64,000 bases of DNA. It comes from a virus. Every line of letters starts with the position of its first letter. Position 1 is the first letter of the stretch. Below the pieces are notes generated by a model. The model saw only the letters and a program-made list of their open reading frames with translations. It made no database searches and was not told where the DNA came from. Positions 14,062 through 62,926 of this stretch are shown here, piece by piece. The translations under genes were made by a program, and so were the position numbers. The DNA lies in IMG/VR virus record IMGVR_UViG_3300037067_022543; one strand, written 5' to 3'.

Positions 14062-15233
14062 AATTTACTTTCAATTTTTCCGCCACTAGTAATCTCTATA
14101 AATTCACATTTTTCCTGAAATTCTTTTAAGTTTTTAGCCCCAACATAAGAAAATGATGATTGCAAGCCATGTTTAATATGTTTTAAAATATGTTTAACAT
14201 GCCCCCTAAAAGGAGCCATTTTTGCAACTCCTTCTACAAATTCATTTGCATTTCCATTTGAAACTTTATTTTCTCCGCTAGCAGAACCAGCATAAACTTT
14301 ATAAAACTCCCCTCTTTCTCCTGTAAAAACATTTCCTGGAGTTTCTGTTGATCCGGACAACATGGAACCGAGCATAACTGCATGAGAATATTTTAAGCTC
14401 TTTGCAATATCTCCTATTGATGACATGCCTCCATCTGCAATTATCTTTATGTGTTTAATGCCTTGTCTTATAAACTCTTCATTAATTGATTCCAAAGCAT
14501 AAAGTTGAGGAACACCAACCCCCGTATTTTTCCTCGTTAAGCAGGCCGAACCAGGACCGACGCCGCACTTAATACAATCTGCTCCCCATTCTGCAATATC
14601 GTAAGCACCTTCTGGAGTTGAAACATTACCTGCTATAATATATATATCTTTTAATCCTTTTTCTTTTATCCATTTTAATATATTTTTCATTACTAAAGAA
14701 TGGCCATGGGCAATATCTATGCAAAATATTTTTGCTCCAGCTTCGTATAAACTGTCAAACCTTTTTTTATCTTCATCTTGAACTCCTATTGAAACTCCAA
14801 TTTCATGGTCTTTATTACAAATACTTTTAATATTAGGATGTATATTAAAAGTACTACTATTAAAACTACTACAAGATTCTGAATATTTATCTTCATCTTT
14901 TAAAATAACAGTTGAGTTTCCTAAACTAATAGTATTACTTATAAGCCCTTCATTAACAGAAAAATGGTTTTTAACTTCTAAAAAATCTTCTACAGCTTGT
15001 TCAATACTGCAAAATCTATGTAAAATTCCCATACCGCCATTTTCAATCATTGCTATTGACATTTTAACGCCGCAAATAGTCTTCATATTTGCTGCTATAA
15101 TTGGCAAATTTATCTTAAAAAATCCAAAATCACTAGATAAATCAACACTTCTTCTAGACTCTATTTCAGAATATTTGGGGACAATTAGTACGTCACTAAA
15201 TGTATATGCTTCTTTATTTATTTTTTTATCCAT
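14058..15233 (-). CDS. IMP dehydrogenase / GMP reductase family protein (no CBS insert)
   Basis: CIDIAHGHS and the catalytic loop GVGPGSACLTR of the IMPDH/GMPR TIM barrel. Confidence 0.8.
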   Translation of the reverse strand: MDKKINKEAYTFSDVLIVPKYSEIESRRSVDLSSDFGFFKINLPIIAANMKTICGVKMSIAMIENGGMGILHRFCSIEQAVEDFLEVKNHFSVNEGLISNTISLGNSTVILKDEDKYSESCSSFNSSTFNIHPNIKSICNKDHEIGVSIGVQDEDKKRFDSLYEAGAKIFCIDIAHGHSLVMKNILKWIKEKGLKDIYIIAGNVSTPEGAYDIAEWGADCIKCGVGPGSACLTRKNTGVGVPQLYALESINEEFIRQGIKHIKIIADGGMSSIGDIAKSLKYSHAVMLGSMLSGSTETPGNVFTGERGEFYKVYAGSASGENKVSNGNANEFVEGVAKMAPFRGHVKHILKHIKHGLQSSFSYVGAKNLKEFQEKCEFIEITSGGKIESKL

Positions 15234-21667: not shown

Positions 21668-22852
21668 CTAATTAATTCTATGTTTTTTAACATAAACTTT
21701 ATCGTTGTTGGTAAGTTTTAAATGAACAAATTTAAAGTTTGACTTTAAAATATTTTCAACATGTTTTTTTTTATTGTTAATTTTATTCATATATTTATTG
21801 AAAATATATGCCTTTTTACCCCACCCTCGTGACATTTTATTATAACTAGTTACCTCAAAATAAGTATTTATTTCAGGAATATAAAAATCATATCTCTTTT
21901 TTCCAAAACCTTTATAAAGTCCATTTATTTTTATTTCTTTGTATTTATTTTTTAATGAAGTTAAATAAAAATATGCCTCGGTAAAAGAATCAAATTTGGT
22001 ATTGTCATCTAAAATTATTTTTACGCATAACGGACATCCATTTCCTCCGATAGACCTATTACATATTGCAGACTTCCATTCGTGCCCAGCCTTACACTTC
22101 CACCACACCTTTTTACGCGATTTACTTACTACATCTTTTGGAGTTAATTTGTTATTTCTATCATAATTCCATTCTTTTGCTAATTCTGGATTCTTTGTTA
22201 CTAAACAAGTTTCACTACAAACTTTGTGGCCGGAACAATAAGGGCAACCCCCTCCGCTAGCCCTGTAGCTAATATTAGCTTCCCATTCGTGCCCCTTTAT
22301 GCATTTCCACCATACTTTTTTATTACTAGTTGCTCCAACATTTTTCGGCATTAAATCTTTATTCTTAACATAATTCCACTCCCTACATAAATTTTTATTT
22401 AAAAATGCTAAAGAATTATCTTTACATATTTTTTGATTACAACAATATGGGCAACATCTTCCATCGTTTCGATTATTTATTTGTGCCACCCATTCGTGAC
22501 CATTTTTGCATTTCCACCATACTTTTTTATTACTACCTGTCGTAAAATCTTTTGGTGAAATTCCAATATTTTTTTTATAATTCCATTCTTTTACCAATTT
22601 TGGATTTATAGTAGCCAAACAATTGTCTGGACACACTTTGTGGCCAGAACAATAAGGACAACTACAACCATTATTTCTATCATTTATTTTGGCTCTCCAA
22701 CTATGACCATTTTTGCATTTCCACCATACTTCTTTATGACTACCAAAACTAACATCCTTGGGAGTTAAACCCATGTTCTTTTCAACATCCCACTCTTTGG
22801 AAAAATCCGGCCTAACAATTGATAATCTGTTTTTATTATTTAGTTTTTTCAT
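21668..22852 (-). CDS. zinc-ribbon repeat protein (4-5 repeats of WWKCKNGHEW...CPYCSG; DUF4379-like) with C-terminal Vsr/DUF559-like nuclease-fold domain
   Basis: Repeats GSNKKVWWKCKNGHEWVAQINNR..CPYC; C-terminal RYDFYIPEINTYFEV resembles the DUF559 core. Confidence 0.6.
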   Translation of the reverse strand: MKKLNNKNRLSIVRPDFSKEWDVEKNMGLTPKDVSFGSHKEVWWKCKNGHSWRAKINDRNNGCSCPYCSGHKVCPDNCLATINPKLVKEWNYKKNIGISPKDFTTGSNKKVWWKCKNGHEWVAQINNRNDGRCCPYCCNQKICKDNSLAFLNKNLCREWNYVKNKDLMPKNVGATSNKKVWWKCIKGHEWEANISYRASGGGCPYCSGHKVCSETCLVTKNPELAKEWNYDRNNKLTPKDVVSKSRKKVWWKCKAGHEWKSAICNRSIGGNGCPLCVKIILDDNTKFDSFTEAYFYLTSLKNKYKEIKINGLYKGFGKKRYDFYIPEINTYFEVTSYNKMSRGWGKKAYIFNKYMNKINNKKKHVENILKSNFKFVHLKLTNNDKVYVKKHRIN

Positions 22853-24895: not shown

Positions 24896-25864
24896 TCATG
24901 GTTTTATGCTCTGGGAACAAATAAGATCTTTATTATCCCAGAAATGTTTTAATGCTACCTGTGTCAATCTCTCAACAAATTGTGCAGGACTATCACCTTC
25001 TCCCTTTTCTACTATTTTATCAATAAACTCAGGACAATCTGACAATATCCTTTTAGCTATTTTTATCCTACAATCCTTATCTAATTTCTTTAATTCAAAT
25101 GCCCTATCTATTCTGCCTGGTCTAGTTGAAATATTTGTTCCGTTAGGATCTTTATCAGTTCTTGGCTTCCCTAACGCTTCATCTAATAATTCTACTCTAT
25201 TCGTAGTTACTATGAGAAATAATCCATCTGTATTTTGAACACCGTCTATGCAATTTAAAAAACAATCAAATGTTAATAAATCTAAATTATTATTTCTATT
25301 TCTAACATTTTCTCTGCCGTTAAAAACAGCATCAACATCTTCAATTAATGCTATACATGGAGTACTTCCTAACATATTTGACCATTCTTTGCAAAATTCA
25401 TAATTAGACATACCAGAAATATCAAAAAAATGAATTGGTAAATCAAGATGCTGACCTATTGCCTTAGCTAAAGAAGTCTTACCTGTATTATGAGAAACTA
25501 TATGATTTGAATAATAACTATGTGCGTTGCTTTTTACTTCAATGTCGTAAGTATCTTTAATGCCAATATATTCTTTTGCAATTACTTTATCTAAACCAGT
25601 TTCTGTTAAAACAGAGTCTTTCCCAACCACAATGTCTTCTGCCGATTTCCATTTTTTATTTTTGCTCATAACCAAATGATCATCGGAACATCCTAAAGAT
25701 AGTCCACCATTAGTTCTCAATATGTATGCATTTTTATTTTTTTTATTATAAACATCTCCTATTTCCATCCACCCATCGGGAGTTTCTATTTCGTATATTC
25801 CGTCTTCATCAACTATTTTAAAAAAATCTTCTATTGAAATTTCTTTTTCGTCTCCAATTTGCAT
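24896..25864 (-). CDS. C-terminal intein fragment (~129 aa) fused to the C-extein of a BCS1-like AAA+ ATPase
   Basis: Intein block B LGCSDDHLVMS and blocks F/G DTYDIEVKSNAHSYYSNHIVSHN, followed by +1 Thr and TGKTSLAKAIG (second half of Walker A); sensor LIVTTN; SD AGGA 6 nt before the ATG. Confidence 0.7.
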   Translation of the reverse strand: MQIGDEKEISIEDFFKIVDEDGIYEIETPDGWMEIGDVYNKKNKNAYILRTNGGLSLGCSDDHLVMSKNKKWKSAEDIVVGKDSVLTETGLDKVIAKEYIGIKDTYDIEVKSNAHSYYSNHIVSHNTGKTSLAKAIGQHLDLPIHFFDISGMSNYEFCKEWSNMLGSTPCIALIEDVDAVFNGRENVRNRNNNLDLLTFDCFLNCIDGVQNTDGLFLIVTTNRVELLDEALGKPRTDKDPNGTNISTRPGRIDRAFELKKLDKDCRIKIAKRILSDCPEFIDKIVEKGEGDSPAQFVERLTQVALKHFWDNKDLICSQSIKP

Positions 25865-25902: not shown

Positions 25903-26784
25903 CTACTGGACTATTATTTTTTTGTGCTTGCCATCATTGGACTTTTTTCTTATTTTTATCTTTGTTTCAGCAAGAACACATCCAGGGCTTCCGAAAAGTA
26001 GCCACCCTCTTTTCCAAGGGATAGATTTTGACCTATACCACTTCTCGCTATCCTTCCATCTTTCCATTTCTCCTACTAATGCATCTATTTCTTTTGGAAA
26101 AGCTAATACTTGCAAACTTCTTTTTTCGTCTTGATCTTCTCCTATATCATCAACTTTATATTTTAATATTCTTTTATCTCCAAGAAAAACATCTACATTG
26201 CATGTTATTGTTGCCATTCCTCCATCAGATGGAGCATACTTAGCTGTTTTTTCATCACCATTGCAAGATCGTCCTATGTGTCTATAAATCGTAAATCTAG
26301 ATCTTTTATCATTTTTAATACTCCTTTGATTTAATAACTCTATAGCGTCTATCATTAATTGTTCAATATCAAATGTTCCTCTAATAAAAGAAATAGATGC
26401 AGAACGTTGTTCTCCAATTTCAGATGATGTAACGGGCCTGTTATCATCCTTATTATCAGACATTGAAATAATTAATGGTTTCCAACCCTTCCAAAAAATT
26501 GTTTTGTCTTTAAAATTGACTTCTTCATATCCAATTATATGATGCTTTTTTATACTTTTGATATAATCTCTAAATGTTGAAAAAGAAAGCGGTTGAAATG
26601 GTGATCTTCTAAAATTTTTGACTAAATATACTTCCATCGCTTTTGGCAAATTTCTATCAATTCTAATAGTGACAATAAATAAACTTGATACTCTAGAAAA
26701 TAAAAACTTAATTTTACTCCAAACCAAACCAATAGTGGTAAATATTGCAGCTCCACCAAATACTGTTTCTAAATTATTTAACAT
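25903..26784 (-). CDS. N-extein of BCS1-like AAA+ ATPase (TM anchor, ...KRGWLLFGSPG) fused to a 25-aa N-terminal intein fragment (CVLAETKIKIRKKSNDGKHKKIIVQ)
   Basis: The extein ends in the first half of Walker A (GSPG), directly followed by Cys1 and block-A-like CVLAET; stop after 25 intein residues. Confidence 0.7.
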   Translation of the reverse strand: MLNNLETVFGGAAIFTTIGLVWSKIKFLFSRVSSLFIVTIRIDRNLPKAMEVYLVKNFRRSPFQPLSFSTFRDYIKSIKKHHIIGYEEVNFKDKTIFWKGWKPLIISMSDNKDDNRPVTSSEIGEQRSASISFIRGTFDIEQLMIDAIELLNQRSIKNDKRSRFTIYRHIGRSCNGDEKTAKYAPSDGGMATITCNVDVFLGDKRILKYKVDDIGEDQDEKRSLQVLAFPKEIDALVGEMERWKDSEKWYRSKSIPWKRGWLLFGSPGCVLAETKIKIRKKSNDGKHKKIIVQ

Positions 26785-28901: not shown

Positions 28902-29660
28902 TTAAATCCATTGTTCAATATAATTTCTGTCTTGTGTAAAAATTGGAATTGTGCGATCTTCAATAATATCTGTTCTGAAAACATCGTGATCGCTAATGTT
29001 TTTTTTAGCCTGTTTTTTATATAAGCAAATGCCGCGTTTCTTCCATATGTCTATATTATTCCAATTTATGCCTTTTTCTTTAAAAAGTTTTTCCTGAACT
29101 TGATCGTTATTTAATCCAGACATTTCCTTATGAGAAAAGTTTGCTTGTCCAAGTCCCTGAATACTATTTCTGGTACAATCATTTTGTCTCCAAATAAAAT
29201 AGTTGCAAACTTCTTCTTTAGGCAATACAAAGGCTCTGGAATCAAATAGTCCACAATCACTAATTTCTGGTGATTTTAAATTTAGAAATATAAAACATTT
29301 ATTAAAGCATATAGTAGCAATGGATGCAGATACACTAACAATTTTTTGAAGATTCTTTTCAAACCAAGCTTGCGTGTAAATATTTTCGTAATCTGTTGCC
29401 AAAATGCTGATTTCGTCAGATTGAATATAAGCTAACTTTGAACCTTGAATTTCTTCAAGCAAACCCCTGCCTGTATCAACCATAGCCATTGCAAAATCTT
29501 CATCGAAAGGCTTTTGAAATCCACTCCTTTGTGTAAAACTATGAAACGCCTTTCCATCAACTCTAATAATTAAAGGCATTCTACGAGTAAGATAATGAAG
29601 ATTAACTTCCTCGTACTGCTTCATACGATTTCCTAAAGAATCTGTTTCTATTGTTTTCAT
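28902..29660 (-). CDS. Thg1-like protein (tRNA-His guanylyltransferase / 3'-5' polymerase family)
   Basis: LIIRVDGKAFHSF, IQSDEISIL and FDSRAFVLP match Thg1/TLP catalytic motifs. Confidence 0.8.
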   Translation of the reverse strand: MKTIETDSLGNRMKQYEEVNLHYLTRRMPLIIRVDGKAFHSFTQRSGFQKPFDEDFAMAMVDTGRGLLEEIQGSKLAYIQSDEISILATDYENIYTQAWFEKNLQKIVSVSASIATICFNKCFIFLNLKSPEISDCGLFDSRAFVLPKEEVCNYFIWRQNDCTRNSIQGLGQANFSHKEMSGLNNDQVQEKLFKEKGINWNNIDIWKKRGICLYKKQAKKNISDHDVFRTDIIEDRTIPIFTQDRNYIEQWI

Positions 29661-35094: not shown

Positions 35095-35171
35095 TGGTGA
35101 TCTCGGAGGAATTCGAATCCCCAATTTCTTCCACGTCAAGGAAGCACATTAACCAATTATGTTACGAGACC
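35095..35171 (-). tRNA. tRNA-Val (anticodon GAC), CCA encoded
   Basis: Manual fold: acceptor GGTCTCG/CGAGATC, anticodon arm CTTCC-TTGACGT-GGAAG, T-arm GGGGATTCGAATTCCTC. Confidence 0.65.
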
Positions 35172-36214
35172 AAACTGGTGCTCCTGGCAGGAATTAAACC
35201 CACTTCTACGGGATGAGAACCAGTCGTTTTATTCGGTAAACTATAGGAGCCAAAATTCTTAATCCTATCTAAAAAACTGTCCAATTTGTTTTCTGGATAT
35301 AAATCTGACGGTATTATTTCTATAAATTTTAAATTGTTGTCTTTTACTATTTTGCGTTTGAGTTCTACTACTTTATCATATTCTTCCACCTGCCCTATTA
35401 AACCGAAATATTCTACCAATATATTATAATATGGTAAATAAAAATCACAATCCATATTGCTATTGGGATATTTTTTATTTCTTTCGTGATTTATTTTATT
35501 TATAAAAAACCAATCGTCTACTATTTTTTCAGATATGCTGTCTGCCATATGATTGTCTTGACATTTCAATCTAGTTTTTTGAAATTTACTTTTGTTTGGT
35601 TTTAATCCGCAAAAACTAACGGCTTTATTCCATGTTCCAAAAAATCTTATGGTAGCAGACAATAATCTTATTAAACAATCTCTTTTTTGAGGAGTTCTAT
35701 TAATTTTTTGAGATAATTGTATTATTTTATTAATTACTTCGTCTTTGGTATATGGAGAAAATCCAAACTGATATATTTTTCCGCATTTTGCAGAACAACA
35801 CTTGATTCTTTTTCTCGATGGATGGAATTTTTTTCCACAAATAACGCAGTTCATTTCTTCAAGCATTATTTTATTTTGTGTTTTAAGATATTTTCTAATT
35901 GAATTTCTAGTTTTTTCTGATATTTCTTTTCTTTTTTCATCACTAAAAATTCTATTTTTATTATTTACTACTGCTGCACAAGAATTGCAACAATAAAATT
36001 TCTTTGTTTTACTTCTTTTATAATCACAATTTCCAACCACAATATCTTTTCCACAGTTATAACATTTTAGATTTTTAGATTTTGTTTTAAATTGTATTCT
36101 GCATTCTTTGCTACAAAAAAACTTCCATTTTTGTTTATTCGACCAATTATAATTCCTAGCTGGCATACCAAAATGATGGTGGCAGAAAGAACACTCGACA
36201 TCAATATCTACCAT
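35162..36214 (-). CDS. N-terminal zinc-ribbon repeats + C-terminal DUF559/Vsr-like endonuclease-fold protein
   Basis: Multiple CxxC pairs; DCDFYLPYYNILVEYFG matches the DUF559 core. The ORF as called reads through tRNA-like 35176..35251, so the true 3' end is uncertain. Confidence 0.5.
   Translation of the reverse strand: MVDIDVECSFCHHHFGMPARNYNWSNKQKWKFFCSKECRIQFKTKSKNLKCYNCGKDIVVGNCDYKRSKTKKFYCCNSCAAVVNNKNRIFSDEKRKEISEKTRNSIRKYLKTQNKIMLEEMNCVICGKKFHPSRKRIKCCSAKCGKIYQFGFSPYTKDEVINKIIQLSQKINRTPQKRDCLIRLLSATIRFFGTWNKAVSFCGLKPNKSKFQKTRLKCQDNHMADSISEKIVDDWFFINKINHERNKKYPNSNMDCDFYLPYYNILVEYFGLIGQVEEYDKVVELKRKIVKDNNLKFIEIIPSDLYPENKLDSFLDRIKNFGSYSLPNKTTGSHPVEVGLIPARSTSLVS
35176..35251 (-). tRNA. 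tRNA-like element (possible Glu, anticodon CTC) with acceptor and anticodon-stem mismatches and a non-canonical T-loop
   Basis: Manual fold GCTCCTA...CAGGAGC A CCA; T-loop TTTAATT lacks C56. Confidence 0.3.
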
Positions 36215-36312
36215 AAGAATAACTCCTTTTATATAATTATTCTTTAATATGTCGGCAATCTCCTACTTGAACCTTCAATTATTTGTATTATTTTTTAGGA
36301 CGGTTCAAAAAA

Positions 36313-36390
36313 TGGTGTCGCCATCGGGACTCGAACCCGAACTTTTCAGGATGAAAACCTGATGTGTTAGCCAGTTACACCATGGCGACA
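36313..36390 (-). tRNA. tRNA-Glu (anticodon TTC), CCA encoded
   Basis: Acceptor TGTCGCC/GGCGACA, anticodon arm TCAGG-TTTTCAT-CCTGA, T-arm GGGTTCGAGTCCC. Confidence 0.7.
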
Positions 36391-36395
36391 TAAGT

Positions 36396-36487
36396 TGGTC
36401 AGAGGGGTGGGATTTGAACCCACGATTACCTTGCGGTTTTCCTCCTGCGCCCAAGGCAGGCGTTCTACCAAGCTGAACTACCCTCTG
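36396..36487 (-). tRNA. tRNA-Pro-like (anticodon TGG, G37) with a 20-nt variable region containing a GNRA-capped hairpin (ACC-GCAA-GGT)
   Basis: Perfect acceptor CAGAGGG/CCCTCTG, Pro-type D-loop AGCTTGGTA, anticodon arm CCTGC-CTTGGGC-GCAGG, T-arm GTGGGTTCAAATCCCAC; variable region AGGAAAACCGCAAGGTAATC. Confidence 0.55.
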
Positions 36488-36495
36488 TACAAAAT

Positions 36496-36572
36496 TGGCA
36501 CTCCTGACAGGACTTGAACCTGCACAATCCCACGTTCGTAGCGTAGTGCCCTTCCAATTAGGCCACAGGAGC
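36496..36572 (-). tRNA. tRNA-Arg (anticodon ACG), CCA encoded
   Basis: Acceptor GCTCCTG/CAGGAGT, anticodon loop CTACGAA, T-arm GCAGGTTCAAGTCCTGT. Confidence 0.7.
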
Positions 36573-36606
36573 ATTATACATTAAATTTTCAAATATCAAT
36601 AAAAAA

Positions 36607-36686
36607 TGGTGGGCATGGTGGGATTTGAACCCACGACCTTCTGTGTATCAGACAGACGCTGCTAAAACCAGCTGAGCTACATGCCC
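36607..36686 (-). tRNA. tRNA-Ile (anticodon GAT), CCA encoded
   Basis: Acceptor GGGCATG/CATGCCC, anticodon arm TCTGT-CTGATAC-ACAGA, T-arm GTGGGTTCAAATCCCAC. Confidence 0.7.
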
Positions 36687-36729
36687 ATAATTATGCATTA
36701 TTAAGTTTTCAAATAACAAAACTAAAAAT

Positions 36730-36804
36730 GGTCCGGACCATCCAGAATCGAACTGGAGCCTTCAAGTTCACAGCATGACGGGCTACCACTACCCCATAGT
36801 CGGC
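36730..36804 (-). tRNA. tRNA-His-like (anticodon GTG) with genomically encoded G-1; one C.C mismatch in the acceptor stem
   Basis: Anticodon arm TCATG-CTGTGAA-CTTGA, T-arm TCCAGTTCGATTCTGGA, G immediately 5' of acceptor CCGACTA; the 3' side is TGGTCCG-G-ACCA. Confidence 0.45.
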
Positions 36805-36813
36805 ATCAAAAAG

Positions 36814-36900
36814 TCGGGAAGGTCGGATTTGAACCGACAATGCATTATTTCAGCTCCTGCTTCCAAAGCAGGTCGAGTACCAGTTATCTTCTACTTCCCG
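36814..36900 (-). tRNA. degenerate tRNA-like element (anticodon TGG, A37; irregular D-arm; 17-nt variable region), no CCA
   Basis: Acceptor CGGGAAG/CTTCCCG and T-arm GTCGGTTCAAATCCGAC are intact; the anticodon stem CCTGC/GCAGG is identical to that of tRNA-Pro-like 36396..36487. Confidence 0.35.
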
Positions 36901-40674: not shown

Positions 40675-40896
40675 CTATGAACACTGTAACATAAAACCAG
40701 CTTCTTCCATTGGTTTTCTATGTAATTTAACCATTTGTTGAGCAAGGGACGGATTAAATCGCCCCTTAGTTTCCTTCATAATCTTACCCACGACATAACT
40801 TTCACAATCTTCTTGTTTTTTGTTATTAGGATTTTTAAATATAAATTCTTTCATACCAGAATCTATCAAACAGGCAATACTTATTATATCTTTCAC
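40675..40896 (-). CDS. hypothetical small protein (73 aa)
   Basis: Minus-strand ORF. Confidence 0.35.
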   Translation of the reverse strand: MKDIISIACLIDSGMKEFIFKNPNNKKQEDCESYVVGKIMKETKGRFNPSLAQQMVKLHRKPMEEAGFMLQCS

Positions 40897-40905
40897 AATT
40901 TCTCC

Positions 40906-41463
40906 CTATTCAAATTTTTTAATATCTTTGAAAGTGTATGGTTCTAAATAATCAGGATTATCAATTAAGATTTGCTTGCCATAATTGTTTTTAGGATTAA
41001 TAACTAACGGAGATTTAATAATTATAACTCCTTCTGAAAAGACTCCTTTAGCTATATTTCCCTTATCTACTTTAACAATAGTAAGAAAAACAAGATCATC
41101 TGAAGATGATGCATTTAATGCCATTTTATCTTCTTCGCTTGGAGTTGGCTTATAATCCTTAAAAATAAAAAAGGGATCAATACACATAAAGCTAAGTTTT
41201 GTTTCTCCACAAAAGTTCATTATAATAAAAGGGTTACTTTTATCATTAAAAACAAAAGCAAATTCCTTATTGTCTTTAAAACCAGGTAAACCGTCTGGAA
41301 AGTAAAACATCTTTTCTGAAAATCCCCTATTAGAAATAAGATTTTTGTAAGGAATTTTCTTCTTCTGATTTTTACCAAGATATCCCAACATATTTAACTG
41401 AACTAAACTCATTTTAATTCTCCTTGTATTAAAGAAACTTTTATTTGAACCATTTATAACCAA
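40906..41463 (-). CDS. fliW: FliW homolog (flagellar assembly factor / CsrA antagonist family, DUF180)
   Basis: FYFPDGLPGFKDNKEFAFVF, FMCIDPFFIFKDYKPTPSEEDKMALN and IIKSPLVINPKNNYGKQILID are colinear with the FliW motifs (F.P.GLPGF, ID.PF.IF.DY.P...EED, AP.IINL.N..GKQ). The true start may be the internal MSLVQLNML. Confidence 0.7.
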   Translation of the reverse strand: MVINGSNKSFFNTRRIKMSLVQLNMLGYLGKNQKKKIPYKNLISNRGFSEKMFYFPDGLPGFKDNKEFAFVFNDKSNPFIIMNFCGETKLSFMCIDPFFIFKDYKPTPSEEDKMALNASSSDDLVFLTIVKVDKGNIAKGVFSEGVIIIKSPLVINPKNNYGKQILIDNPDYLEPYTFKDIKKFE

Positions 41464-41475
41464 TAGTGTTGCATT

Positions 41476-41892
41476 TTAATCAAATACCATCATTTCATCC
41501 CATAATTTATATTTGTCTTTATTTATACAAAAAACAATTGTAAAATCATCAGAACATTTATCTATTTTATCTAATGATTCTCTTGCAGCTCTAACAACCA
41601 AACAATCTTTCCATAATAAGTTTTCTCCTAACTCCGGAACAAATACTATCTTTTTGTTTAATTTAATTGCTTTATTTATTGATGAAACATATGAATTAAC
41701 AAGTTCTTGCCAATCATTTTTATTAATTTGAGAAGAAGCATTAGATGAACATGATGGAACAGATACAAGTATTATATTAAATTTTTCTTTATATTCACAA
41801 AAAGGTTCAAATTGTGATGGATTCTTATTTTTTTGTACAATTTCAATGTCATAATTTTGATCTTTTTTACTGGTTGTAATTTTAACTTGCAC
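41476..41892 (-). CDS. hypothetical protein, weak macro-domain-like features
   Basis: NIILVSVPSCSSNAS ... KIVFVPELGENL is loosely reminiscent of macro-domain motifs; low confidence. Confidence 0.35.
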   Translation of the reverse strand: MQVKITTSKKDQNYDIEIVQKNKNPSQFEPFCEYKEKFNIILVSVPSCSSNASSQINKNDWQELVNSYVSSINKAIKLNKKIVFVPELGENLLWKDCLVVRAARESLDKIDKCSDDFTIVFCINKDKYKLWDEMMVFD

Positions 41893-42108: not shown

Positions 42109-42573
42109 TTATATTTTGCTAAACCAAATGTTGCAAGCCAATTTCTCTTTACAACTTGGGCACGTAATCCCGTTTTCTCTAGCTTCATCTGCTGTAATTA
42201 ATCTTTCTTTGCATTTATCACAATACATATCAGTTATGCCCTTATCATAATATGTCCTATTGTTCTTGTCAACAATTTCTCTTTCCCATATTATACCGTC
42301 TTTTTGACAAAATAGCTGTATTCTTTTGCCTATTATTTTAATATTTTCCGTGTTGGGAAGAGTAACAAGAGCATATTCTCTTCCTTCTTGTTTATTTTTA
42401 TATAAATGGTCTTTAATATCTTGAGTTATAGATTTAGAATTGATAATATGGTCTATATAAGCAATTGGCCATTCTTTATATAGTGAAAACCCAGTATTAA
42501 AGCATTTGCATTTTTCGTTCTTACAAACAAATTCATATCCTGCTACATTTCTATTTTCTTTAGATTGGCTCAT
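42109..42573 (-). CDS. Cys-rich zinc-ribbon protein (154 aa)
   Basis: CKNEKCKC...CDKCKERL...CPSCKEKLAC. Confidence 0.45.
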   Translation of the reverse strand: MSQSKENRNVAGYEFVCKNEKCKCFNTGFSLYKEWPIAYIDHIINSKSITQDIKDHLYKNKQEGREYALVTLPNTENIKIIGKRIQLFCQKDGIIWEREIVDKNNRTYYDKGITDMYCDKCKERLITADEARENGITCPSCKEKLACNIWFSKI

Positions 42574-42585
42574 TTATTCCTTTTC

Positions 42586-43146
42586 TTAATTATATTCAAC
42601 CATCCAATCATCGGCTAACATATCTTTAATGTCACAAAAAAGTTCATGATCTTCTATATAATTTTCACTTTCCCTTACCAACAGCAGTTCGCCGTCTTCA
42701 GATCTGGAAACAGCAATCATATCCATGCCTTCTCCTCTTGTACGCCAACCTTTTCTACAAGCTCTTTTACCATTAAGAATTTCACGCAATGGAAACTGAC
42801 GACAAACAACCCAACCTTCTAGTTCACAATGCGAATCACGTGAATCACTTAGACCTAATTTATTAATTTCCCAAGGATGTCTTATTCCATTTAAAAAATC
42901 ATCATCTATCCAAATTTCAACAGAACTAATTTGTTCTATATCTGATTTATATTTCCTACCATCAAAATATTCAACTCCTATAACTACTGTTTCTTTTCCT
43001 GTTAAATTGTCATGAACTTTTTCACCAACAAAGAAAGGAAGATTTATGGTTTTAGATGGTGGTAGATTAATTTTAGTTTCTATAACAATATTATCCCCAA
43101 CATTATAATTTATAGTTTTATTCATAGCAATGATATTATTTCCCAT
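42586..43146 (-). CDS. hypothetical protein (186 aa)
   Basis: Minus-strand ORF. Confidence 0.45.
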   Translation of the reverse strand: MGNNIIAMNKTINYNVGDNIVIETKINLPPSKTINLPFFVGEKVHDNLTGKETVVIGVEYFDGRKYKSDIEQISSVEIWIDDDFLNGIRHPWEINKLGLSDSRDSHCELEGWVVCRQFPLREILNGKRACRKGWRTRGEGMDMIAVSRSEDGELLLVRESENYIEDHELFCDIKDMLADDWMVEYN

Positions 43147-43649: not shown

Positions 43650-44135
43650 TTATACACAATATTTTTTTATTTTTAAATAGAGCTTGTAGAAGTTTTTATC
43701 ATTATATAAAATTCCTATTCCACCATTTTTAATCCATTCTTGAATATTATCTTCTCTATCGTCTATTAAAACAGAAATTGGTGTTGCATATCCCTGCTTT
43801 TCTTCTCTCTGACAAAAAAATGAAGTTAAATTACCAAGGTTGTTTTTTATCCACATTTTCTTACCTTCAAGAGTGTATATTCCATCTTTTTTGTAAGCAG
43901 ACAAAATAATTGGACTGCTTTTGCTGACTAATTTGTAGAGATCTTTTCCATTTTTAGTCCAAGCCATTTCAGACCAAAATTTAACTCCTTGCTTATTAAC
44001 AGTATTCCAAAAAACATCTTGATTTATTTTCTTTTCTTTTATTTCTGATTCAGTCCACATTCCCAAACCAATAAGTGAACCCATTAAATCAGTTATAACA
44101 TCATCCATATCTAAATATATCTGAAACCTTCTCAT
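43650..44135 (-). CDS. HAD-superfamily 5'(3')-deoxyribonucleotidase (NT5C-like)
   Basis: N-terminal IYLDMDDVITDL (DxDxV HAD motif I); size ~160 aa typical of NT5C. Confidence 0.5.
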   Translation of the reverse strand: MRRFQIYLDMDDVITDLMGSLIGLGMWTESEIKEKKINQDVFWNTVNKQGVKFWSEMAWTKNGKDLYKLVSKSSPIILSAYKKDGIYTLEGKKMWIKNNLGNLTSFFCQREEKQGYATPISVLIDDREDNIQEWIKNGGIGILYNDKNFYKLYLKIKKYCV

Positions 44136-46030
44136 TTAGTCAAACCTGCTTCCTTTAAAAATTGACTTGGGTAACAAATCCTATAATTATCTCCAAATCC
44201 ACCTATTTTTCTTTTTCTACAAGATGAAACAAATAGCATTTTTTCAGCCCTAGTCATTGCAACATAAAACAACCTTCTTTCTTCTTCCTCTCCATCTGGT
44301 TCTGTCATTGCTCTTGCGTGTGGCAATATTTCTTTTTCTACACCAACAACAAGAACAACCGGAAACTCTAACCCCTTAGCAGCGTGAATAGTCATTAGTG
44401 TAATCTGATTTTTATTACTACTATCGTCAGATGATGTATATAAGGATATTTTTTGCAAAACTTCATCACAGCTTAACTTTTTATTTTCTTCTGTATTAAT
44501 AGAATTAATAAACTCGTAAACGTTTTCTATTCTATCATTAACATCTTTCCTATTACTATTTTCTAAAACTCCTTCATAATGGATAGACTTAATTATGTGA
44601 GTAAGTATATGAGACGCTTCTTTGTATTGGCAACCATATGCTTCTTTTAGTAAATCAACAGATGCTTGAGACCTTCTTGACAACTTACTATAAACCTTTT
44701 GACAAACATTAACGAATCCTATTTCTCCTTTATGAAATTCTTCTTCTATTATTTTAATTGTTTTTGGACCTATTCCGTCCAATAAGTTAGCCACTCTTGA
44801 AAAAGCGACAACATCTTTATCATTAGCAAAAAGCTTTAGCATAGCCATGCAATCTTTTATTTCAGATCTTTCATAAAAACTAAATCCACCTACTATTTTG
44901 TAAGCCATCCCCATTCTAACGCATGTTTCTTCTAATATTCTGCTCATGAAGTTGGTTCTATATAAAATTACAAAACTATTAGGAGAACAATTAGATGAAG
45001 TTAATAGGTTTGAAATCTTGTTTACAATAAAATTAGCTTCTTGTTCTGGATCTAAAAATTCATTATATTGAACAGGATGACCGTCTTTATTTAGTGTTTC
45101 AAAAACCTTATCTATTCTTTTTTTATTTCTTTTTATTAAGTTATCAGATACCTTAACTATTTGTGGGGTTGAACGATAGTTATAGGTTAATTTTATTATT
45201 TTAATATCTTTATTTTCTTTAATAAAATCATCTATGTTTTCATATCTAGCCCCTCTAAACTGATAAATGGACTGGTCTGGGTCTCCTACCACAAATACAT
45301 TTTTATGTTTTTCTGACAAAAGTTTAATTAAGGCAAATTGAGCGTAATTGGTGTCTTGAGCTTCATCTACCTGCAGATATTGGTGAGAGTTTTGAATTTT
45401 ATTTCTTGGCAAATCATTGTTTTGCATTAATATTATTGATTCATATAACAAACCAGAAAAATCAACACATTTGAATTTCTTTAAATATTCAATATATGTT
45501 TTAGAAACATCTACAAATTTATCTACCATACTTAAATCAGAACAAATTTCAGAAAAAAAATTATTCCAAGAACCTTCTTGTGATAAATCAATTAAATCTT
45601 CTCTGGCTGTATTAATAACATTTGCAATGGCATCAGAATCCATTTCCTTCTTAAATTTTTCATACTTTTGTCTAATAATCTTATTTATTAGATCTTTTTG
45701 TTCTCCAGAATCAAGAATGGTAAAATTCCTTGGCAAATCAGCATAATGTCCAAATTGTCTTAAAACCTTTGCACATAACGCATGAAATGTTCCAACAAAC
45801 ATATTACTGTGATTACTATTTAGTGAAGTGGAAATTCTTTGTTTCATTTCCCTTGCAGCTTTATTTGTAAATGTCAAAGAAATAATATTTTTTGGTTCAA
45901 TACCACTGTTGATTAACCGAACCGTGCGTTCTACTAGTACTCTTGTTTTTCCAGAGCCTGGAACTGCTACAACAAGGCATGGCCCTGTTGTATGGTTGGC
46001 TGCTTCTTCTTGTTTTTCGTTTAATTGCAT
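44132..46030 (-). CDS. UvrD/Rep/PcrA-family SF1 DNA helicase
   Basis: AVPGSGKT (Walker A), TFTNKAAREM, VVGDPDQSIY. Confidence 0.85.
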   Translation of the reverse strand: MQLNEKQEEAANHTTGPCLVVAVPGSGKTRVLVERTVRLINSGIEPKNIISLTFTNKAAREMKQRISTSLNSNHSNMFVGTFHALCAKVLRQFGHYADLPRNFTILDSGEQKDLINKIIRQKYEKFKKEMDSDAIANVINTAREDLIDLSQEGSWNNFFSEICSDLSMVDKFVDVSKTYIEYLKKFKCVDFSGLLYESIILMQNNDLPRNKIQNSHQYLQVDEAQDTNYAQFALIKLLSEKHKNVFVVGDPDQSIYQFRGARYENIDDFIKENKDIKIIKLTYNYRSTPQIVKVSDNLIKRNKKRIDKVFETLNKDGHPVQYNEFLDPEQEANFIVNKISNLLTSSNCSPNSFVILYRTNFMSRILEETCVRMGMAYKIVGGFSFYERSEIKDCMAMLKLFANDKDVVAFSRVANLLDGIGPKTIKIIEEEFHKGEIGFVNVCQKVYSKLSRRSQASVDLLKEAYGCQYKEASHILTHIIKSIHYEGVLENSNRKDVNDRIENVYEFINSINTEENKKLSCDEVLQKISLYTSSDDSSNKNQITLMTIHAAKGLEFPVVLVVGVEKEILPHARAMTEPDGEEEERRLFYVAMTRAEKMLFVSSCRKRKIGGFGDNYRICYPSQFLKEAGLTK

Positions 46031-58060: not shown

Positions 58061-59983
58061 TTATTTCTTTTTATCATCAACCATTTCAAAATCAGCATCA
58101 ATTACATCACCTTGTGCATCTTTTTTGTCTTTAATGTTATCAGATGTTTGTTCAGATGTTTTTTCTTTAGAATTCTTTGCTTTTTCATATAATTCAGAAG
58201 AAACAGAATGCATAGATTCATTAAGTGATTCCATTTTTTCCTTAATTGTCTTAACATCTTCAGATTTAATGGCAGATTTCAATTCTTCTATTTTCTTTTC
58301 AACATCTATTTTTTTATCAGAAGAAATCTTTTCAGAATTATCTTTCAGCATTTTCTCTGTTTGATAAACAACATTTTCTGCTATGTTCTTTGTTTCGATT
58401 TTTTCCCTTGAATCCTTATCTTCTTGAGAATGTTCTTCTGCATCTTTAACCATTTCTTTAATTTCTTTTTCAGTCAATCCACTAGATGCTGTTATGGTTA
58501 TCTTTTGTTCCTTATTTGTTCCCAAATCTTTTGCAGAAACATGTAAAATACCATTAGCATCTATATCAAATGCCACTTCTATTTGAGGTGTTCCACGCAT
58601 AGCAGGAGGAATACCATCAAGATGAAAACGCCCTAATGATTTATTACCTTTTGCCATTTGTCTTTCGCCTTGCAAAACATGTATTTCTACGGCAGGTTGG
58701 TTGTCAGCTGCAGTACTAAATATTTCTGACTTGCGTGTTGGTATGGTGGTATTTCTCTCAATCAATTTTGTATAAACTCCACCCAATGTTTCTATCCCTA
58801 AAGAGAGGGGAGTAACATCTAACAGCAACACATCTTTTACATCTCCCTTAATAATACCTCCTTGTATAGAAGCCCCAACTGCAACTACTTCATCTGGATT
58901 AACGCCTTTATGAGGTTCTTTTCCAAATGTCGCTTGAACAACATCTTGAACTTTAGGCATTCTGGTCATTCCTCCAACCATAACAACTTCATTAATATCT
59001 TTATAATCCAAACTAGAATCTTTCACGCATTTTTTGACTGGTGAAAGAGTTCTGCTAATTAAATCATCAACTAGTTGTTCTAGTTTAGATCTGGACAAGT
59101 TAATATTTAAATGTTTTGGTCCAGAAGCATCAGCAGTAATAAAAGGAAGATTAATATCAGTTTGTTGAGATGAAGATAACTCACATTTAGCTTTTTCAGC
59201 AGCTTCCTTCAATCTTTGCAAAGCCATACTATCTTTTGACAAATCAATGCCGTTATCTTTTTTGAATTCAGAAGTCAACCATTGGATAATAAGTTGATCA
59301 AAATCATCTCCACCAAGATGGGTGTCACCATTAGTAGATTTAACTTCAAAAACTCCATCTCCTATATCCAAAATAGAAATATCAAAAGTTCCACCACCAA
59401 GATCATAAACAGCAATCTTTTCATCCTTCTTTTTGTCCATACCATAGGCTAAAGAAGCAGCAGTTGGCTCATTAATTATTCTTAACACTTCAAGACCAGC
59501 AATCTTTCCAGCATCCTTTGTGGCTTGCCTCTGACTATCATTGAAATATGCTGGCACAGTTATAATTGCTTGTGTAACACTTTCCCCCAAATAAGATTCT
59601 GCATCTGTTTTCAACTTTTGCAAAATCATAGATGATATTTCAGGAGGAGAATAAGTCTTGCCATCTACTTCAACATGGGCATCACCATTTTTTGCTTTTA
59701 CTATTTTATATGGTACTAATGATATTTCGTGAGCTACTTCATCATATTTTCTTCCCATAAACCTTTTAATTGAATAAACAGTGTTTTTGGGGTTAGTCAC
59801 TGATTGCCTTTTAGCTGATTGCCCAACAAGCCTTTCTCCGCTTTTAGTGAATGCTACTATTGAAGGAGTTGTTCTACTGCCTTCTGCATTTGGAATAACA
59901 ACAGGTTGCCCGCCTTCCATAACAGCCATACAGCTATTTGTAGTTCCCAAGTCTATACCTATAACCTTATTCGATTTAGCCAT
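58061..59983 (-). CDS. dnaK: Hsp70 chaperone DnaK (bacterial type)
   Basis: [33 protein letters not shown]; full-length 640 aa; TATAAT and AAGGAA upstream. Confidence 0.9.
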
Positions 59984-60622: not shown

Positions 60623-60700
60623 TGGTAGGTGCGGAGGGATTTGAACCCCCAACCCCCGAGATATAAGCTCGGTGCTCTAACCAGTTGAAGCTACGCACCC
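60623..60700 (-). tRNA. tRNA-Ile (anticodon TAT, AUA-reading), CCA encoded
   Basis: Acceptor GGGTGCG/CGCACCT, anticodon arm CCGAG-CTTATAT-CTCGG, T-arm GGGGGTTCAAATCCCTC. Confidence 0.6.
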
Positions 60701-60712
60701 ATATTTCTCAAA

Positions 60713-60787
60713 TGGCTGCCCGACCAGGATTTGAACCTAGACTAACACGTTCAGAGCGTGTCATGCTGCCAATTACACTATCGGGCA
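60713..60787 (-). tRNA. tRNA-Gln (anticodon CTG), CCA encoded
   Basis: U1:A72 acceptor TGCCCGA/TCGGGCA, anticodon arm ACACG-CTCTGAA-CGTGT. Confidence 0.65.
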
Positions 60788-60793
60788 ATAAAG

Positions 60794-60865
60794 TTGTCCC
60801 GCCTGGAATTGAACCAGGTCTAGAACGTTCAAAGCGTCCTGTGCAGACCTTTACACCACGGGACA
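60794..60865 (-). tRNA. tRNA-Gln (anticodon TTG), no CCA
   Basis: Acceptor TGTCCCG/CGGGACA, anticodon arm GGACG-CTTTGAA-CGTTC, T-arm CCTGGTTCAATTCCAGG. Confidence 0.65.
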
Positions 60866-60870
60866 ATAAA

Positions 60871-61239
60871 TCATATTTTAACATTTAACTCTTCAATATC
60901 AAAATTATGCCTAAACGATTGTTTTTTTAATTTTTCTTCTTCATCTTTTAGTTTTTTAACTTTTTCTTCTGCAAATTCTTTTCTCATAAAATAGCCATGT
61001 TCCATATAATCAATCCATCTTCCTCTACTATCTTCACAGTTTTCTTTAACCCTATATATCTTGAAAGATCCACCTTGAATAAAATGATCTACTAATTCAT
61101 TTATTGAAGCACAGTTGAGACAACCTTCATTATGGCCGTTATAGCTAGTATTTAAGGTCTCCCTCAATACATCTCTTATTGTAACTGGCTTATCTATTAT
61201 AATACCTATTTCTTTTTTACTCTCAACTATTGTTTCCAT
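60871..61239 (-). CDS. hypothetical protein (122 aa)
   Basis: Minus-strand ORF directly downstream of tRNA-Asp. Confidence 0.45.
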   Translation of the reverse strand: METIVESKKEIGIIIDKPVTIRDVLRETLNTSYNGHNEGCLNCASINELVDHFIQGGSFKIYRVKENCEDSRGRWIDYMEHGYFMRKEFAEEKVKKLKDEEEKLKKQSFRHNFDIEELNVKI

Positions 61240-61274
61240 ATTATTTCTCCTTTTTAATTATTATTTTATAAAGT

Positions 61275-61348
61275 TGGCGGGGCCGATGGGAGTTGAACCC
61301 ACGCAGGAAAATAGACAGTTTCCCATTCTACCGTTAAATCACGGCCCC
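61275..61348 (-). tRNA. tRNA-Asp (anticodon GTC), CCA encoded
   Basis: Acceptor GGGGCCG/CGGCCCC, anticodon arm GGAAA-CTGTCTA-TTTCC. Confidence 0.7.
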
Positions 61349-61421
61349 ATTTTTCAAAGAGCATTTGCAATTTTAGTTTAAATAGTCTCAACCACGTAAA
61401 GGTATTGCATATATGAGACCG

Positions 61422-61504
61422 CTCCATCGGTAGGACTTAAACCTACAAACCCTTACGGGCGTCTGGTTAACAGCCAGATGCGGTTATCATTTCGCCACGA
61501 TGGA
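61422..61504 (-). tRNA. atypical tRNA-Asn-like (anticodon GTT) with a 15-nt variable region forming a CCC-GTAA-GGG (GNRA) hairpin; G18G19 and C56 not conserved
   Basis: Acceptor TCCATCG/CGATGGA, anticodon arm TCTGG-CTGTTAA-CCAGA, T-arm GTAGGTTTAAGTCCTAC. Confidence 0.45.
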
Positions 61505-61532
61505 ATTAAATTTTTCAAAGAACGCCACACGC

Positions 61533-61568
61533 AAAAAAACCTTCAGACATCTGCCTGAAGGCTTTTTA
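61533..61568. terminator. intrinsic terminator-like hairpin (CCTTCAG-N8-CTGAAGG + T5), A-tract on the other side
   Basis: 7-bp perfect stem. Confidence 0.55.
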
Positions 61569-61595
61569 AGACTTAACAACAAGAAAGCAGTTAAG

Positions 61596-61620
61596 CCAAA
61601 GCCTTCACGCTTTGGTTTAT
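61596..61620. terminator. second hairpin (CCAAAGC-cttcac-GCTTTGG + TTTAT)
   Basis: 7-bp perfect stem. Confidence 0.45.
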
Positions 61621-61715
61621 ATCCTGATTATCTTGTATTATATTTTTCATTTTATTACTTTTAATCTAACTATCACATACAATTGAATTTATACTATTAT
61701 TCTTTTGATTCTCTA

Positions 61716-61743
61716 TTTATACCAAAAAATCCTTTATTGTCAA
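61716..61743 (-). promoter_or_regulatory. sigma70-like promoter (TTGACA-N16-TATAAA) with the shared upstream motif TTAAAATAATTC
   Basis: Minus strand reads TTAAAATAATTCTTGACAATAAAGGATTTTTTGGTATAAA. Confidence 0.55.
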
Positions 61744-61767
61744 GAATTATTTTAAAATATTTTATTC

Positions 61768-62007
61768 TTAATCTTTTTTAGTATCTTTTCTCCAATCTGT
61801 TGTTCCTTTTACTTTATCAACAATTGATGCACAATAAGCCCCAGGATTACCCTTATCTTTATTTTTATCAATACACTCATCAATAAATCCGTGCTCCTTT
61901 GGGCTATGTTTGTATTTTTTCTTTTTCTTTGCTTCCTCTATTTTTAACCATCCTGTTTTTTCACCAATGAATTCCCATTGACTTTTAGATAATTTAATTG
62001 TTGCCAT
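61768..62007 (-). CDS. leader-family small protein (MATIKLSKSQWEFIGEKTGWLK...)
   Basis: N-terminus matches the MKITLSKQQWEFIGNKTGW family. Confidence 0.55.
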   Translation of the reverse strand: MATIKLSKSQWEFIGEKTGWLKIEEAKKKKKYKHSPKEHGFIDECIDKNKDKGNPGAYCASIVDKVKGTTDWRKDTKKD

Positions 62008-62091
62008 ATTTATCTCCCATTTTGTTTTATAAATACAGTAGACTATTTATTCAATACTTGAGATGGCTAATCCTTTATGAAAATAGCATAT

Positions 62092-62742
62092 TTAAATACT
62101 TTTTTGACATGGATTAATTATCATACTTATTGTGCTTCTAGAACAATCAAAGTGTTTTGCAATATCTATTTGCCTCATTCCATCTTTATACATTTTAAAA
62201 ACTTCGCTTCTACTAAGCGGAGTCCTTTGTTCTTTAAGAGTTATAACTTTTTCATAAATTATTTTTTTCAATTCATTAAATTTATCTACATTTATATGCT
62301 CTTGCCTATGACAATTGGCACAAATAATTTCGCAATTATTTATCTCTTCCATAAAAACATCCAAAGAAACTTTTTTATTTCTATTTATAATATCACTAAC
62401 AATAAAATTTTTTTTCCCAAAATGATGAAAATCTAAACTAGCTAAATTTTCACCTCTGTATCCGCACCTATGACACTTGGTAAATTTATTATCTAAAAAT
62501 ATTTTGGCTTTCTCGTCGTTATGTCTACTGCTAACGCAATGTGTTTCTTTATGACAATTAACACATAATAAAATACATTTGGATATTTCTTTTTTTAAAA
62601 TACTCCATCTATAATGTTTTAATTTGGCTATTATATTTAATTTGTTGGAATTATGGTGAAAATCCAAACAAAAAATATCAGAATTACCGCATTTACTGCA
62701 TTTTCCTCCCAATAAGTTTATGGCTTTTATTTTCTTGCCCAA
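62092..62742 (-). CDS. HNH homing-endonuclease-like protein with C-terminal HTH
   Basis: CSKCGNSD...FHHN...CVNCH and, later, CANCHRQEH; C-terminal IDIAKHFDCSRSTISMIIN is HTH-like. Confidence 0.65.
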   Translation of the reverse strand: MGKKIKAINLLGGKCSKCGNSDIFCLDFHHNSNKLNIIAKLKHYRWSILKKEISKCILLCVNCHKETHCVSSRHNDEKAKIFLDNKFTKCHRCGYRGENLASLDFHHFGKKNFIVSDIINRNKKVSLDVFMEEINNCEIICANCHRQEHINVDKFNELKKIIYEKVITLKEQRTPLSRSEVFKMYKDGMRQIDIAKHFDCSRSTISMIINPCQKSI

Positions 62743-62850
62743 ACAAGAACATAACGCATATCTTCTTTATTTAATGTCATTTTGTTAAACTCCCTTTTAA
62801 ATATTTATTCATAACGCAGTTGAACAAATCCTTTTTATTTTTTATAAAAA

Positions 62851-62926
62851 TGGCAGAAGCGGCAGGCCACGATCCTGCAACTGAGGATTTGGAGTCCCCT
62901 ATTTTGCCCACTTAAACTACGCTTCT
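62851..62926 (-). tRNA. tRNA-Trp (anticodon CCA), CCA encoded
   Basis: Perfect acceptor AGAAGCG/CGCTTCT, anticodon arm GGGGA-CTCCAAA-TCCTC, T-stem GCAGG/CCTGC with an unusual loop ATCGTGG. Confidence 0.55.

Follow-up and report, generated by a model that had tools for sequence, protein, structure and literature searches.

The FliW-like gene and its product

We analyzed a stretch of 64,000 nucleotides (hereafter the window) from the IMG/VR virus record IMGVR_UViG_3300037067_022543 and found that it contains a gene for a FliW-family protein. FliW is a flagellin-binding protein that also inactivates CsrA, a translational regulator. Few bacterial regulators of translation act globally as CsrA does, and among protein antagonists of CsrA, FliW is the ancestral one. 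An initial annotation, made from the nucleotide sequence, had placed a FliW homolog at positions 40906-41463 of the window and had suggested that a copy of FliW on a mobile element could reprogram CsrA-controlled functions of the host. An unbroken open reading frame (ORF) does span 40906-41463. It lies on the minus strand (the initial annotation gave no strand), and all of the peptides that had been quoted from it are present.

The gene likely begins within this ORF. The TTG at 41463 is merely the first possible start, that is, the start that a mechanical ORF call would give. Inside the ORF, an ATG at 41412 sits 7 nt past a Shine-Dalgarno sequence, AAGGAG (41420-41425, minus strand), and translation from this ATG gives a protein of 168 residues. 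The 168-residue product is 100% identical to a public gene call (P0001) that has the same start and had already been named "flagellar assembly factor FliW" by the Joint Genome Institute (JGI). The equivalent start is used in all eight related loci that we compared. Based on the ribosome-binding site, the identity to P0001, the match to the Pfam FliW family, and the ratio of nonsynonymous to synonymous substitution (dN/dS; below), the FliW-like coding sequence is likely 40906-41412 (minus strand; 168 codons plus the stop), starting at the ATG at 41412 rather than at the TTG at 41463.

We found that most of the product is a FliW domain. The match to Pfam family PF02623 (FliW/DUF180) was well past what chance would give (E = 5.5e-25; 88 bits compared to a gathering score of 25) and covered positions 2-116 of the 122 in the profile. 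This domain corresponds to codons 37-155 (40948-41304). Sequence matches in the PDB were to FliW entries 2aj7 and 5dmb. A structure predicted by AlphaFold from an alignment of 102 sequences (pLDDT 86.4, pTM 0.82) has the FliW fold. When this model was compared to the PDB with Foldseek, there were six significant matches, all of them chains of FliW entries (2aj7, 5dmd, 5jak, and 5dmb). The top superposition was on 5dmb_A, FliW bound to CsrA, with a root-mean-square deviation of 1.8 Å over 126 columns and a target-normalized TM score of 0.78. Thus, the proposal that the gene encodes a FliW homolog was borne out by both the profile match and the predicted fold. The protein had also been described as colinear with FliW across its whole length. 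This is so for residues 37-155 of the 168. In contrast, the first 36 residues (codons 1-36; 41305-41412) are outside the Pfam domain and make up an N-terminal extension that is specific to the family, with the consensus LGYxxKNxxKxxPYKxLISxRGFSEK in the phage clade.

An orphan gene conserved in a probable phage lineage

We searched for relatives of the FliW-like protein in several large collections. Among 5.8 billion proteins searched by word index, we found 13 that were 54-100% identical, all of them metagenomic. Twelve of these are full length (162-170 residues, with an intact frame) and one is a fragment of 115 residues. When 1.84 billion representatives were searched exhaustively with a profile, a single cluster scored below 1e-30, and it was this same family. 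Next were P0014 (4e-26) and P0015 (5e-22), both of which have the N-terminal extension. Bacterial FliWs started near 1e-19, and approximately 1,490 FliW-family proteins in all scored below 1e-3. Nine more JGI metagenome contigs carry a FliW-like gene. There was no relative in 185,579 bacterial species genomes searched with the family alignment, and no FliW-like entry in PHROGs or in the viral structure library BFVD. IMG/VR scans that used the protein, the family alignment, or an alignment of a neighbor likewise gave no relative; these scans needed short exact patterns and so are weak evidence. The family is restricted to this phage lineage.

Some of the bacterial proteins found have two FliW domains in tandem, for example P0029 (326 residues), P0030 (321 residues), and other matches of 230-330 residues.

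In the GenBank phage collection, tblastn gave only two matches, both weak: MT836588.1 (L012) and MT836129.1 (L013). Both are titled "UNVERIFIED: Bacteriophage sp." and come from human faeces. Both contain flgK-flgL-fliW-csrA-flaG-fliD, and because these are bacterial flagellar late operons, we rejected the two records as relatives and flag them as most likely bacterial contamination.

The position of the FliW-like gene is conserved. The genes are in the order UvrD, nucleotidase, further genes, a gene for a 154-residue protein, a gene for a 138-residue protein, and the FliW-like gene. All contigs of sufficient length have this order, including L002 (a 93-kb contig; 54% identity) and L014. The FliW-like protein of L014 is only 31% identical to that of the window, and its 138-residue neighbor is 49% identical. 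That is, the gene order holds from 93% to 31% protein identity. Based on this conservation, we infer that the FliW-like gene is old in the phage lineage and has been inherited vertically, rather than recently acquired.

The gene is under purifying selection. Pairwise dN/dS was 0.07-0.16 where synonymous sites were unsaturated. These values bear on the possibility that the gene is a passenger, captured from a host and now decaying without a function. A decaying gene might be expected to have lost an otherwise invariant residue, as this one has (below), and to have no partner gene on the phage. However, the low dN/dS, the constant length and intact frame of the 12 full-length sequences, the conservation of position down to 31% identity, and the strong ribosome-binding site all argue against decay, and we regard this explanation as extremely improbable.

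We did not find a partner gene on the element. A hidden Markov model (HMM) built from four CsrA sequences gave nothing in the window or the related phage loci (best E about 1), whereas two bacterial controls scored approximately 1e-40. Using tblastn and HMMs, we found neither csrA nor flagellin, whether in the window or in the related loci. There is also no flagellar gene near the FliW-like gene, the neighbors of which are a helicase, a nucleotidase, and genes unmatched in databases. In the bacterial control loci, we saw the flgK-flgL-fliW-csrA-flaG-fliD operon; the linkage of fliW to csrA is not found in the window. The FliW-like gene is therefore an orphan. Together, these results show that the window encodes a protein of the FliW family and fold that is under purifying selection and inherited in a phage-like lineage, with no partner gene on the element.

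CsrA-contact residues and the N-terminal extension

We compared the residues of the FliW-like protein to those by which FliW of Bacillus subtilis recognizes CsrA. For this mapping, 12 family members were aligned with 130 single-domain bacterial FliW representatives. The numbering follows what we take to be the B. subtilis FliW sequence, which fits 16 of the 17 positions named by Oshiro and Kearns (position 20 differs) and also the 5DMB fragment. Mutation of P26, F58, N108, A111, A122, K123, or Q124 of B. subtilis FliW abolishes its antagonism of CsrA (Oshiro and Kearns, bioRxiv 10.1101/2020.07.02.184341). Of these residues, P26, F58, N108, A111, and Q124 ring N55 of CsrA; Q124 is invariant and touches N55 directly; and A122 and K123 are near the CsrA core (10.1101/2020.07.02.184341). 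N108T and N108Y abolish the interaction with CsrA, and the representative alleles N108Y and Q124R no longer bind, in vivo as well as in vitro (10.1101/2020.07.02.184341).

Most of this patch is retained. Bacterial FliWs have 14 columns with at least 80% conservation, and 12 of these are identical in the window protein. P26 (P43 in the window protein), F58 (F75), and K123 (K146) are kept. The residue at A111 is Ser (S134), as in 23 of the 130 bacterial FliWs, and that at A122 is Gly (G145), as in FliW of Geobacillus thermodenitrificans and 81 of the 130. Q124 is Q147, and this column is Gln in 12/12 family members and 130/130 bacterial representatives. Thus, five of the seven positions critical for antagonism (P26, F58, A122, K123, and Q124) have either the wild-type residue or that of G. 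thermodenitrificans (the Gly at A122). Codons 145-147 (40972-40980), Gly-Lys-Gln, are the equivalent of B. subtilis A122-K123-Q124, and Lys or Arg is retained at K123. Other FliW features that are retained are the GLPGF motif, P80, Y87, P135, and N139.

The two signature columns that differ are N108 and the adjacent L109, both of which are Ile in the window protein. The site of N108 is codon 131 (ATT; 41020-41022). This column is Asn in all 130 bacterial representatives and has no Asn in the family (11 Ile and 1 Leu). The register here is secure because there is an invariant Pro four residues downstream and then a "VIN" motif, and it is identical in HMMER alignments to 2aj7, 5dmb, and 9p4g. 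The initial annotation had named loss of the conserved C-terminal CsrA-binding residues as one finding that would speak against its proposal, and this is the case in part. The C-terminal Gly-Lys-Gln is kept, but the Asn at N108 is lost. Within the family of the window protein, the CsrA-contact residues other than this Asn, Gln147 and Lys146 among them, vary little or not at all. The contact patch is conserved in the family and remodeled at one invariant position.

The N-terminal extension is also characteristic of the family. Its 36 residues include an insertion of approximately 15 residues relative to bacterial FliW. The extension is conserved in the family alignment and is 0-13% identical to bacterial FliW. 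Compared to the distant orthologs P0014 and P0015, it is 40-43% identical, whereas the core is 24-33% identical; that is, across the wider phage clade no segment is better conserved than the extension. A further insertion of approximately six residues (DKxNIAKG) is found ahead of the strand that contains Ile131. The change from Asn to Ile and the conserved extension suggest that the protein differs from bacterial FliW in specificity or affinity.

We favor, tentatively and at a little less than an even chance, the view that the protein is a remodeled FliW homolog of a large-phage lineage that targets the flagellin-FliW-CsrA circuit of the host with altered specificity. The FliW family and fold, the phage-like setting, and the retained Gly-Lys-Gln are in line with the earlier suggestion that the gene could reprogram the host CsrA circuit. 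Several observations weigh against it. All eight of the NCBIfam FliW equivalog models (NF009790-NF009801) match the protein, yet all of the scores fall under their cut-offs (the best was 87.9 bits compared to a cut-off of 130). Activity as a CsrA antagonist or a flagellin chaperone is predicted from sequence, and one specific item opposes it: none of the 12 family members has the N108-equivalent Asn, which is replaced by Ile or Leu. In addition, P0014 and P0015, which are encoded at the same genomic position, no longer have GLPGF, and the invariant Gln is Arg in both; they have kept the extension. These differences suggest that the function common to the clade does not rely on the canonical patch. 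The absence of genes for virion proteins (below) also counts against a phage reading.

The main alternative is that the fold has been repurposed. Here, the N-terminal extension and the remodeled pocket would provide a new function, directed at a target outside the flagellin/CsrA circuit, either another host protein or a phage protein such as the 138-residue product. The replacement of the invariant Asn, the missed equivalog cut-offs, the greater conservation of the extension than of the core, and the distant orthologs that keep the extension and the gene order without GLPGF and the invariant Gln all fit with such a change. However, the rest of the CsrA-contact cluster shows little or no variation in the family of the window protein, and the persistence of 12 of the 14 signature columns would be hard to explain were the canonical partners irrelevant. 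We consider repurposing a substantial possibility, with a probability clearly short of even. If the fold has been repurposed, then a flagellar regulatory scaffold has been recruited to a new viral function.

Neighboring genes

The gene directly upstream of the FliW-like gene (41476-41892, minus strand) encodes the 138-residue protein, which is 49-93% identical among its adjacent homologs. It adjoins the FliW-like gene in L002-L007, L010, L011, L014, and L015, and it is often better conserved than the FliW-like protein. Motifs that are invariant in this protein are NKNP, CEY, ILVSVPS, and PELG. We obtained no match for it in Pfam, PHROGs, or the PDB; the highest-ranking profile hits were 3p1v (a metallo-endopeptidase; E = 0.36) and 2dx6 (Thermus thermophilus TTHA0132; E = 1.6). 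It is possible that the 138-residue protein is a functional partner of the FliW-like protein. The conserved adjacency of the two genes fits with a repurposed fold that acts on the 138-residue product, although in L016 another gene is found between the 138-residue homolog and the FliW-like gene.

Farther upstream, the conserved block contains the gene for the 154-residue protein (42109-42573, minus strand), which has CxxC pairs and no Pfam or PHROG match. The block is anchored by two genes (43650-46030), a 5' deoxyribonucleotidase-like gene (43650-44135, minus strand; phrog_2643, 5.7e-23) and a UvrD/PcrA-type helicase gene (44132-46030, minus strand; Pfam UvrD-helicase, 5e-74). The order is the same in L002, L003, and L014, and L010 has a homolog of the nucleotidase. 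In L002, a relative from ENA, the C-terminal part of the UvrD helicase (positions 1-1077 of the contig) is called as three successive short ORFs, which could be due to frameshifts, assembly errors, or an interrupted gene.

A gene for a 186-residue protein (42586-43146, minus strand) is three genes upstream of the FliW-like gene. The C terminus of the product is weakly similar to the Thoeris anti-defense Tad2-like domain (PF11195; E = 2.3e-4; 22 bits, under the cut-off of 25). The gene is present in L001 and L003 and was undetected in several other relatives. This weak similarity hints that the block may contain genes for host takeover or anti-defense, and an anti-defense domain nearby would also be in keeping with a FliW fold put to a new use.

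Directly downstream of the FliW-like gene, where bacteria have csrA, there is a gene for a protein of 73 residues (40675-40896, minus strand). The product is of the size of CsrA, and we considered it as a candidate CsrA. We rejected it; its match, also a weak one, is to GatB/YqeY-like proteins (E = 4.4e-5, under the cut-off). The gene is missing from several relatives.

The genomic setting

The initial annotation had placed the FliW-like gene among phage-like small genes, and the window as a whole agrees with this: the setting is a phage-like array and not a flagellar locus. The window is approximately 30% GC with a negative GC skew throughout. Approximately 90% of it is coding, 84 of the 110 ORFs are on the minus strand, and the small genes are mostly without a database match. 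There are 13 tRNA genes in two arrays (35095-36900 and 60623-62926), with a tRNA-His at 36733-36803. A gene for Thg1, the tRNA-His guanylyltransferase, is at 28902-29660 (minus strand; phrog_4717, 1.8e-87), and its product shares 51% identity with Thg1 from large Bacillus phages. We also found eight matches to PHROG HNH-endonuclease families.

Other recognized genes in the window encode a full-length DnaK/Hsp70 (58061-59983, minus strand; PF00012, 908 bits), an Hsp20-family small heat-shock protein, an epimerase, a 5'-3' exonuclease, Dam-type and N6/N4 methyltransferases, a radical SAM protein, AAA ATPases, a metallophosphoesterase, and a nucleoside 2-deoxyribosyltransferase. Two neighboring ORFs (24896-25864 and 25903-26784, minus strand) both match a single 459-residue AAA ATPase gene of L014, and the window genome appears to have this gene in a split or interrupted form.

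Three proteins are atypical cargo for a phage: a BNR-repeat (sialidase-like) protein (10221-11249, minus strand), an enzyme of the IMPDH/GMP-reductase family (14058-15233, minus strand), and a protein with a four-fold DUF4379 treble-clef zinc finger (21668-22852, minus strand). We considered the IMPDH-family gene as a clue to a host or donor. Its product is 37-39% identical to those of metagenome-assembled genomes (MAGs) of Gammaproteobacteria, and at this level of identity it is uninformative.

The contig is very probably a large phage. There were no genes for capsid, terminase, or tail proteins in the 64-kb window or in approximately 7 kb of additional flanking sequence, which contained a thymidylate synthase gene and genes of unknown function. 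A megablast search with the sequence from 38 to 46 kb gave no close GenBank phage. The missing virion genes, together with the cellular look of DnaK, the IMPDH-family gene, the epimerase, and the BNR-repeat protein, would be expected if the contig came from a bacterial chromosome or plasmid with a diverged FliW of the organism's own. In that case, flagellar, csrA, or flagellin genes might have been found nearby, as in bacterial fliW operons, and they were not. In addition, the family is missing from the 185,579 species genomes, and the two tRNA arrays, the eight HNH-endonuclease family matches, the phage-like Thg1, the nucleotidase and methyltransferases, the dense coding on mostly one strand, and the many unmatched genes are all features that argue for a phage. 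We think it very unlikely that the contig is bacterial.

Some features of the window bear on the host. Shine-Dalgarno-like motifs precede 24 of 52 genes (46%), compared to a background of 4.3%, and this enrichment indicates a bacterial host that uses such motifs. The UvrD helicase is closest (~35% identity) to those of phages of Bacillota. Together with Thg1, these features give a weak hint of a Bacillota-type host. Among the cluster names of the nearest bacterial FliWs, there was one label only, Verrucomicrobia. A scan for promoters and terminators gave no terminators, and promoter-like sites were no more frequent than expected by chance.

A possible role during infection

We consider here how a remodeled FliW homolog might act on the flagellin-FliW-CsrA circuit. 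The FliW-like gene is in a long array of genes on the same strand, along with genes for a helicase and nucleotide metabolism and candidate genes for host takeover. What the protein would bind, which way it would act, and how the phage would gain are extrapolated below from what bacterial FliW does. After infection, the protein would bind a component of the host circuit through the patch made up of P43, F75, S134-P135, and G145-K146-Q147. The step that we rank first is docking on the C-terminal extension of host CsrA, which would block the binding of CsrA to RNA. We regard CsrA as a possible target, if a rather doubtful one. The step ranked second is the capture of host flagellin, which would uncouple the feedback loop; that flagellin alone is the target seems to us improbable.

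CsrA binds GGA motifs in or near Shine-Dalgarno sequences. A block of CsrA would thus be expected to free repressed mRNAs that have a GGA-containing Shine-Dalgarno sequence. Among these would be the flagellin mRNA and possibly also the phage's own messages that are led by AAGGAG. That CsrA represses such phage genes is speculation. In the fullest version of this proposal, the protein would be a captured and re-engineered FliW that serves as a viral antagonist of CsrA. The pocket changed from Asn to Ile and the N-terminal module would have freed it from release by flagellin, and it would lift repression of mRNAs with GGA in the Shine-Dalgarno sequence, including those of the phage. We consider this version less likely than not. 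If true, it would be the first case in which a virus encodes a protein inhibitor of the Csr system.

More generally, if the partner is host CsrA or flagellin, the protein would provide a new viral route to rewire post-transcriptional control and motility of the host. In addition, the family differs naturally from bacterial FliW at a position where bacterial FliW does not vary, and it could be used as a probe of how FliW recognizes its partners.

Comparison with known systems

The label FliW is not new, as the JGI pipeline had already assigned it. What is new is that the gene is a conserved orphan in a phage lineage, that the protein has a substitution at an invariant CsrA-binding residue, and that it has an N-terminal module specific to the clade. 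The initial annotation had stated that a phage FliW was not a well-described strategy. Consistent with this, full-text literature searches found no phage-encoded FliW, and a 2026 review of jumbo phages does not mention one.

The FliW-like protein is most directly compared to the bacterial FliWs: YviF/FliW of B. subtilis, FliW of G. thermodenitrificans (5DMB, 5DMD, and 5JAK), and BH3618 of Bacillus halodurans (2AJ7). It is in the same Pfam family and has the same fold and a core of similar size. In contrast to these proteins, to which it is approximately 25% identical, it has Ile at N108, the N-terminal extension, and the DKxNIAKG insertion. Its gene is in a phage-like genome and not beside csrA or flagellar genes, and it scores under the NCBIfam equivalog cut-offs. 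Divergence between copies of FliW is also found in bacteria. Helicobacter pylori has FliW1 and FliW2, and the N-terminal region of one of these is poorly conserved (PMC11905337). However, the H. pylori genes are chromosomal, in a flagellated host that has CsrA, and that study does not take up a substitution at the invariant Asn (PMC11905337).

Protein antagonists of CsrA are also found outside the FliW family. CesT, the type III secretion chaperone of enteropathogenic Escherichia coli, is one such antagonist (PMC7366521), and its fold and family are unrelated to those of FliW; no CesT was detected here. Other components of the Csr circuit are known on phages, plasmids, and other mobile elements, which carry homologs of CsrA, one of them with a measured effect on fitness (PMC11879866; PMC7366521). 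In gp28 of phage PTXU04 and the Rsm paralogs of Pseudomonas mobile elements, as in the window, a component of the Csr circuit is on a mobile element and presumably reprograms the host (PMC11879866; PMC7366521). The difference is in the component: those elements encode the RNA-binding regulator itself, whereas the phage described here encodes a homolog of its antagonist and has no CsrA gene.

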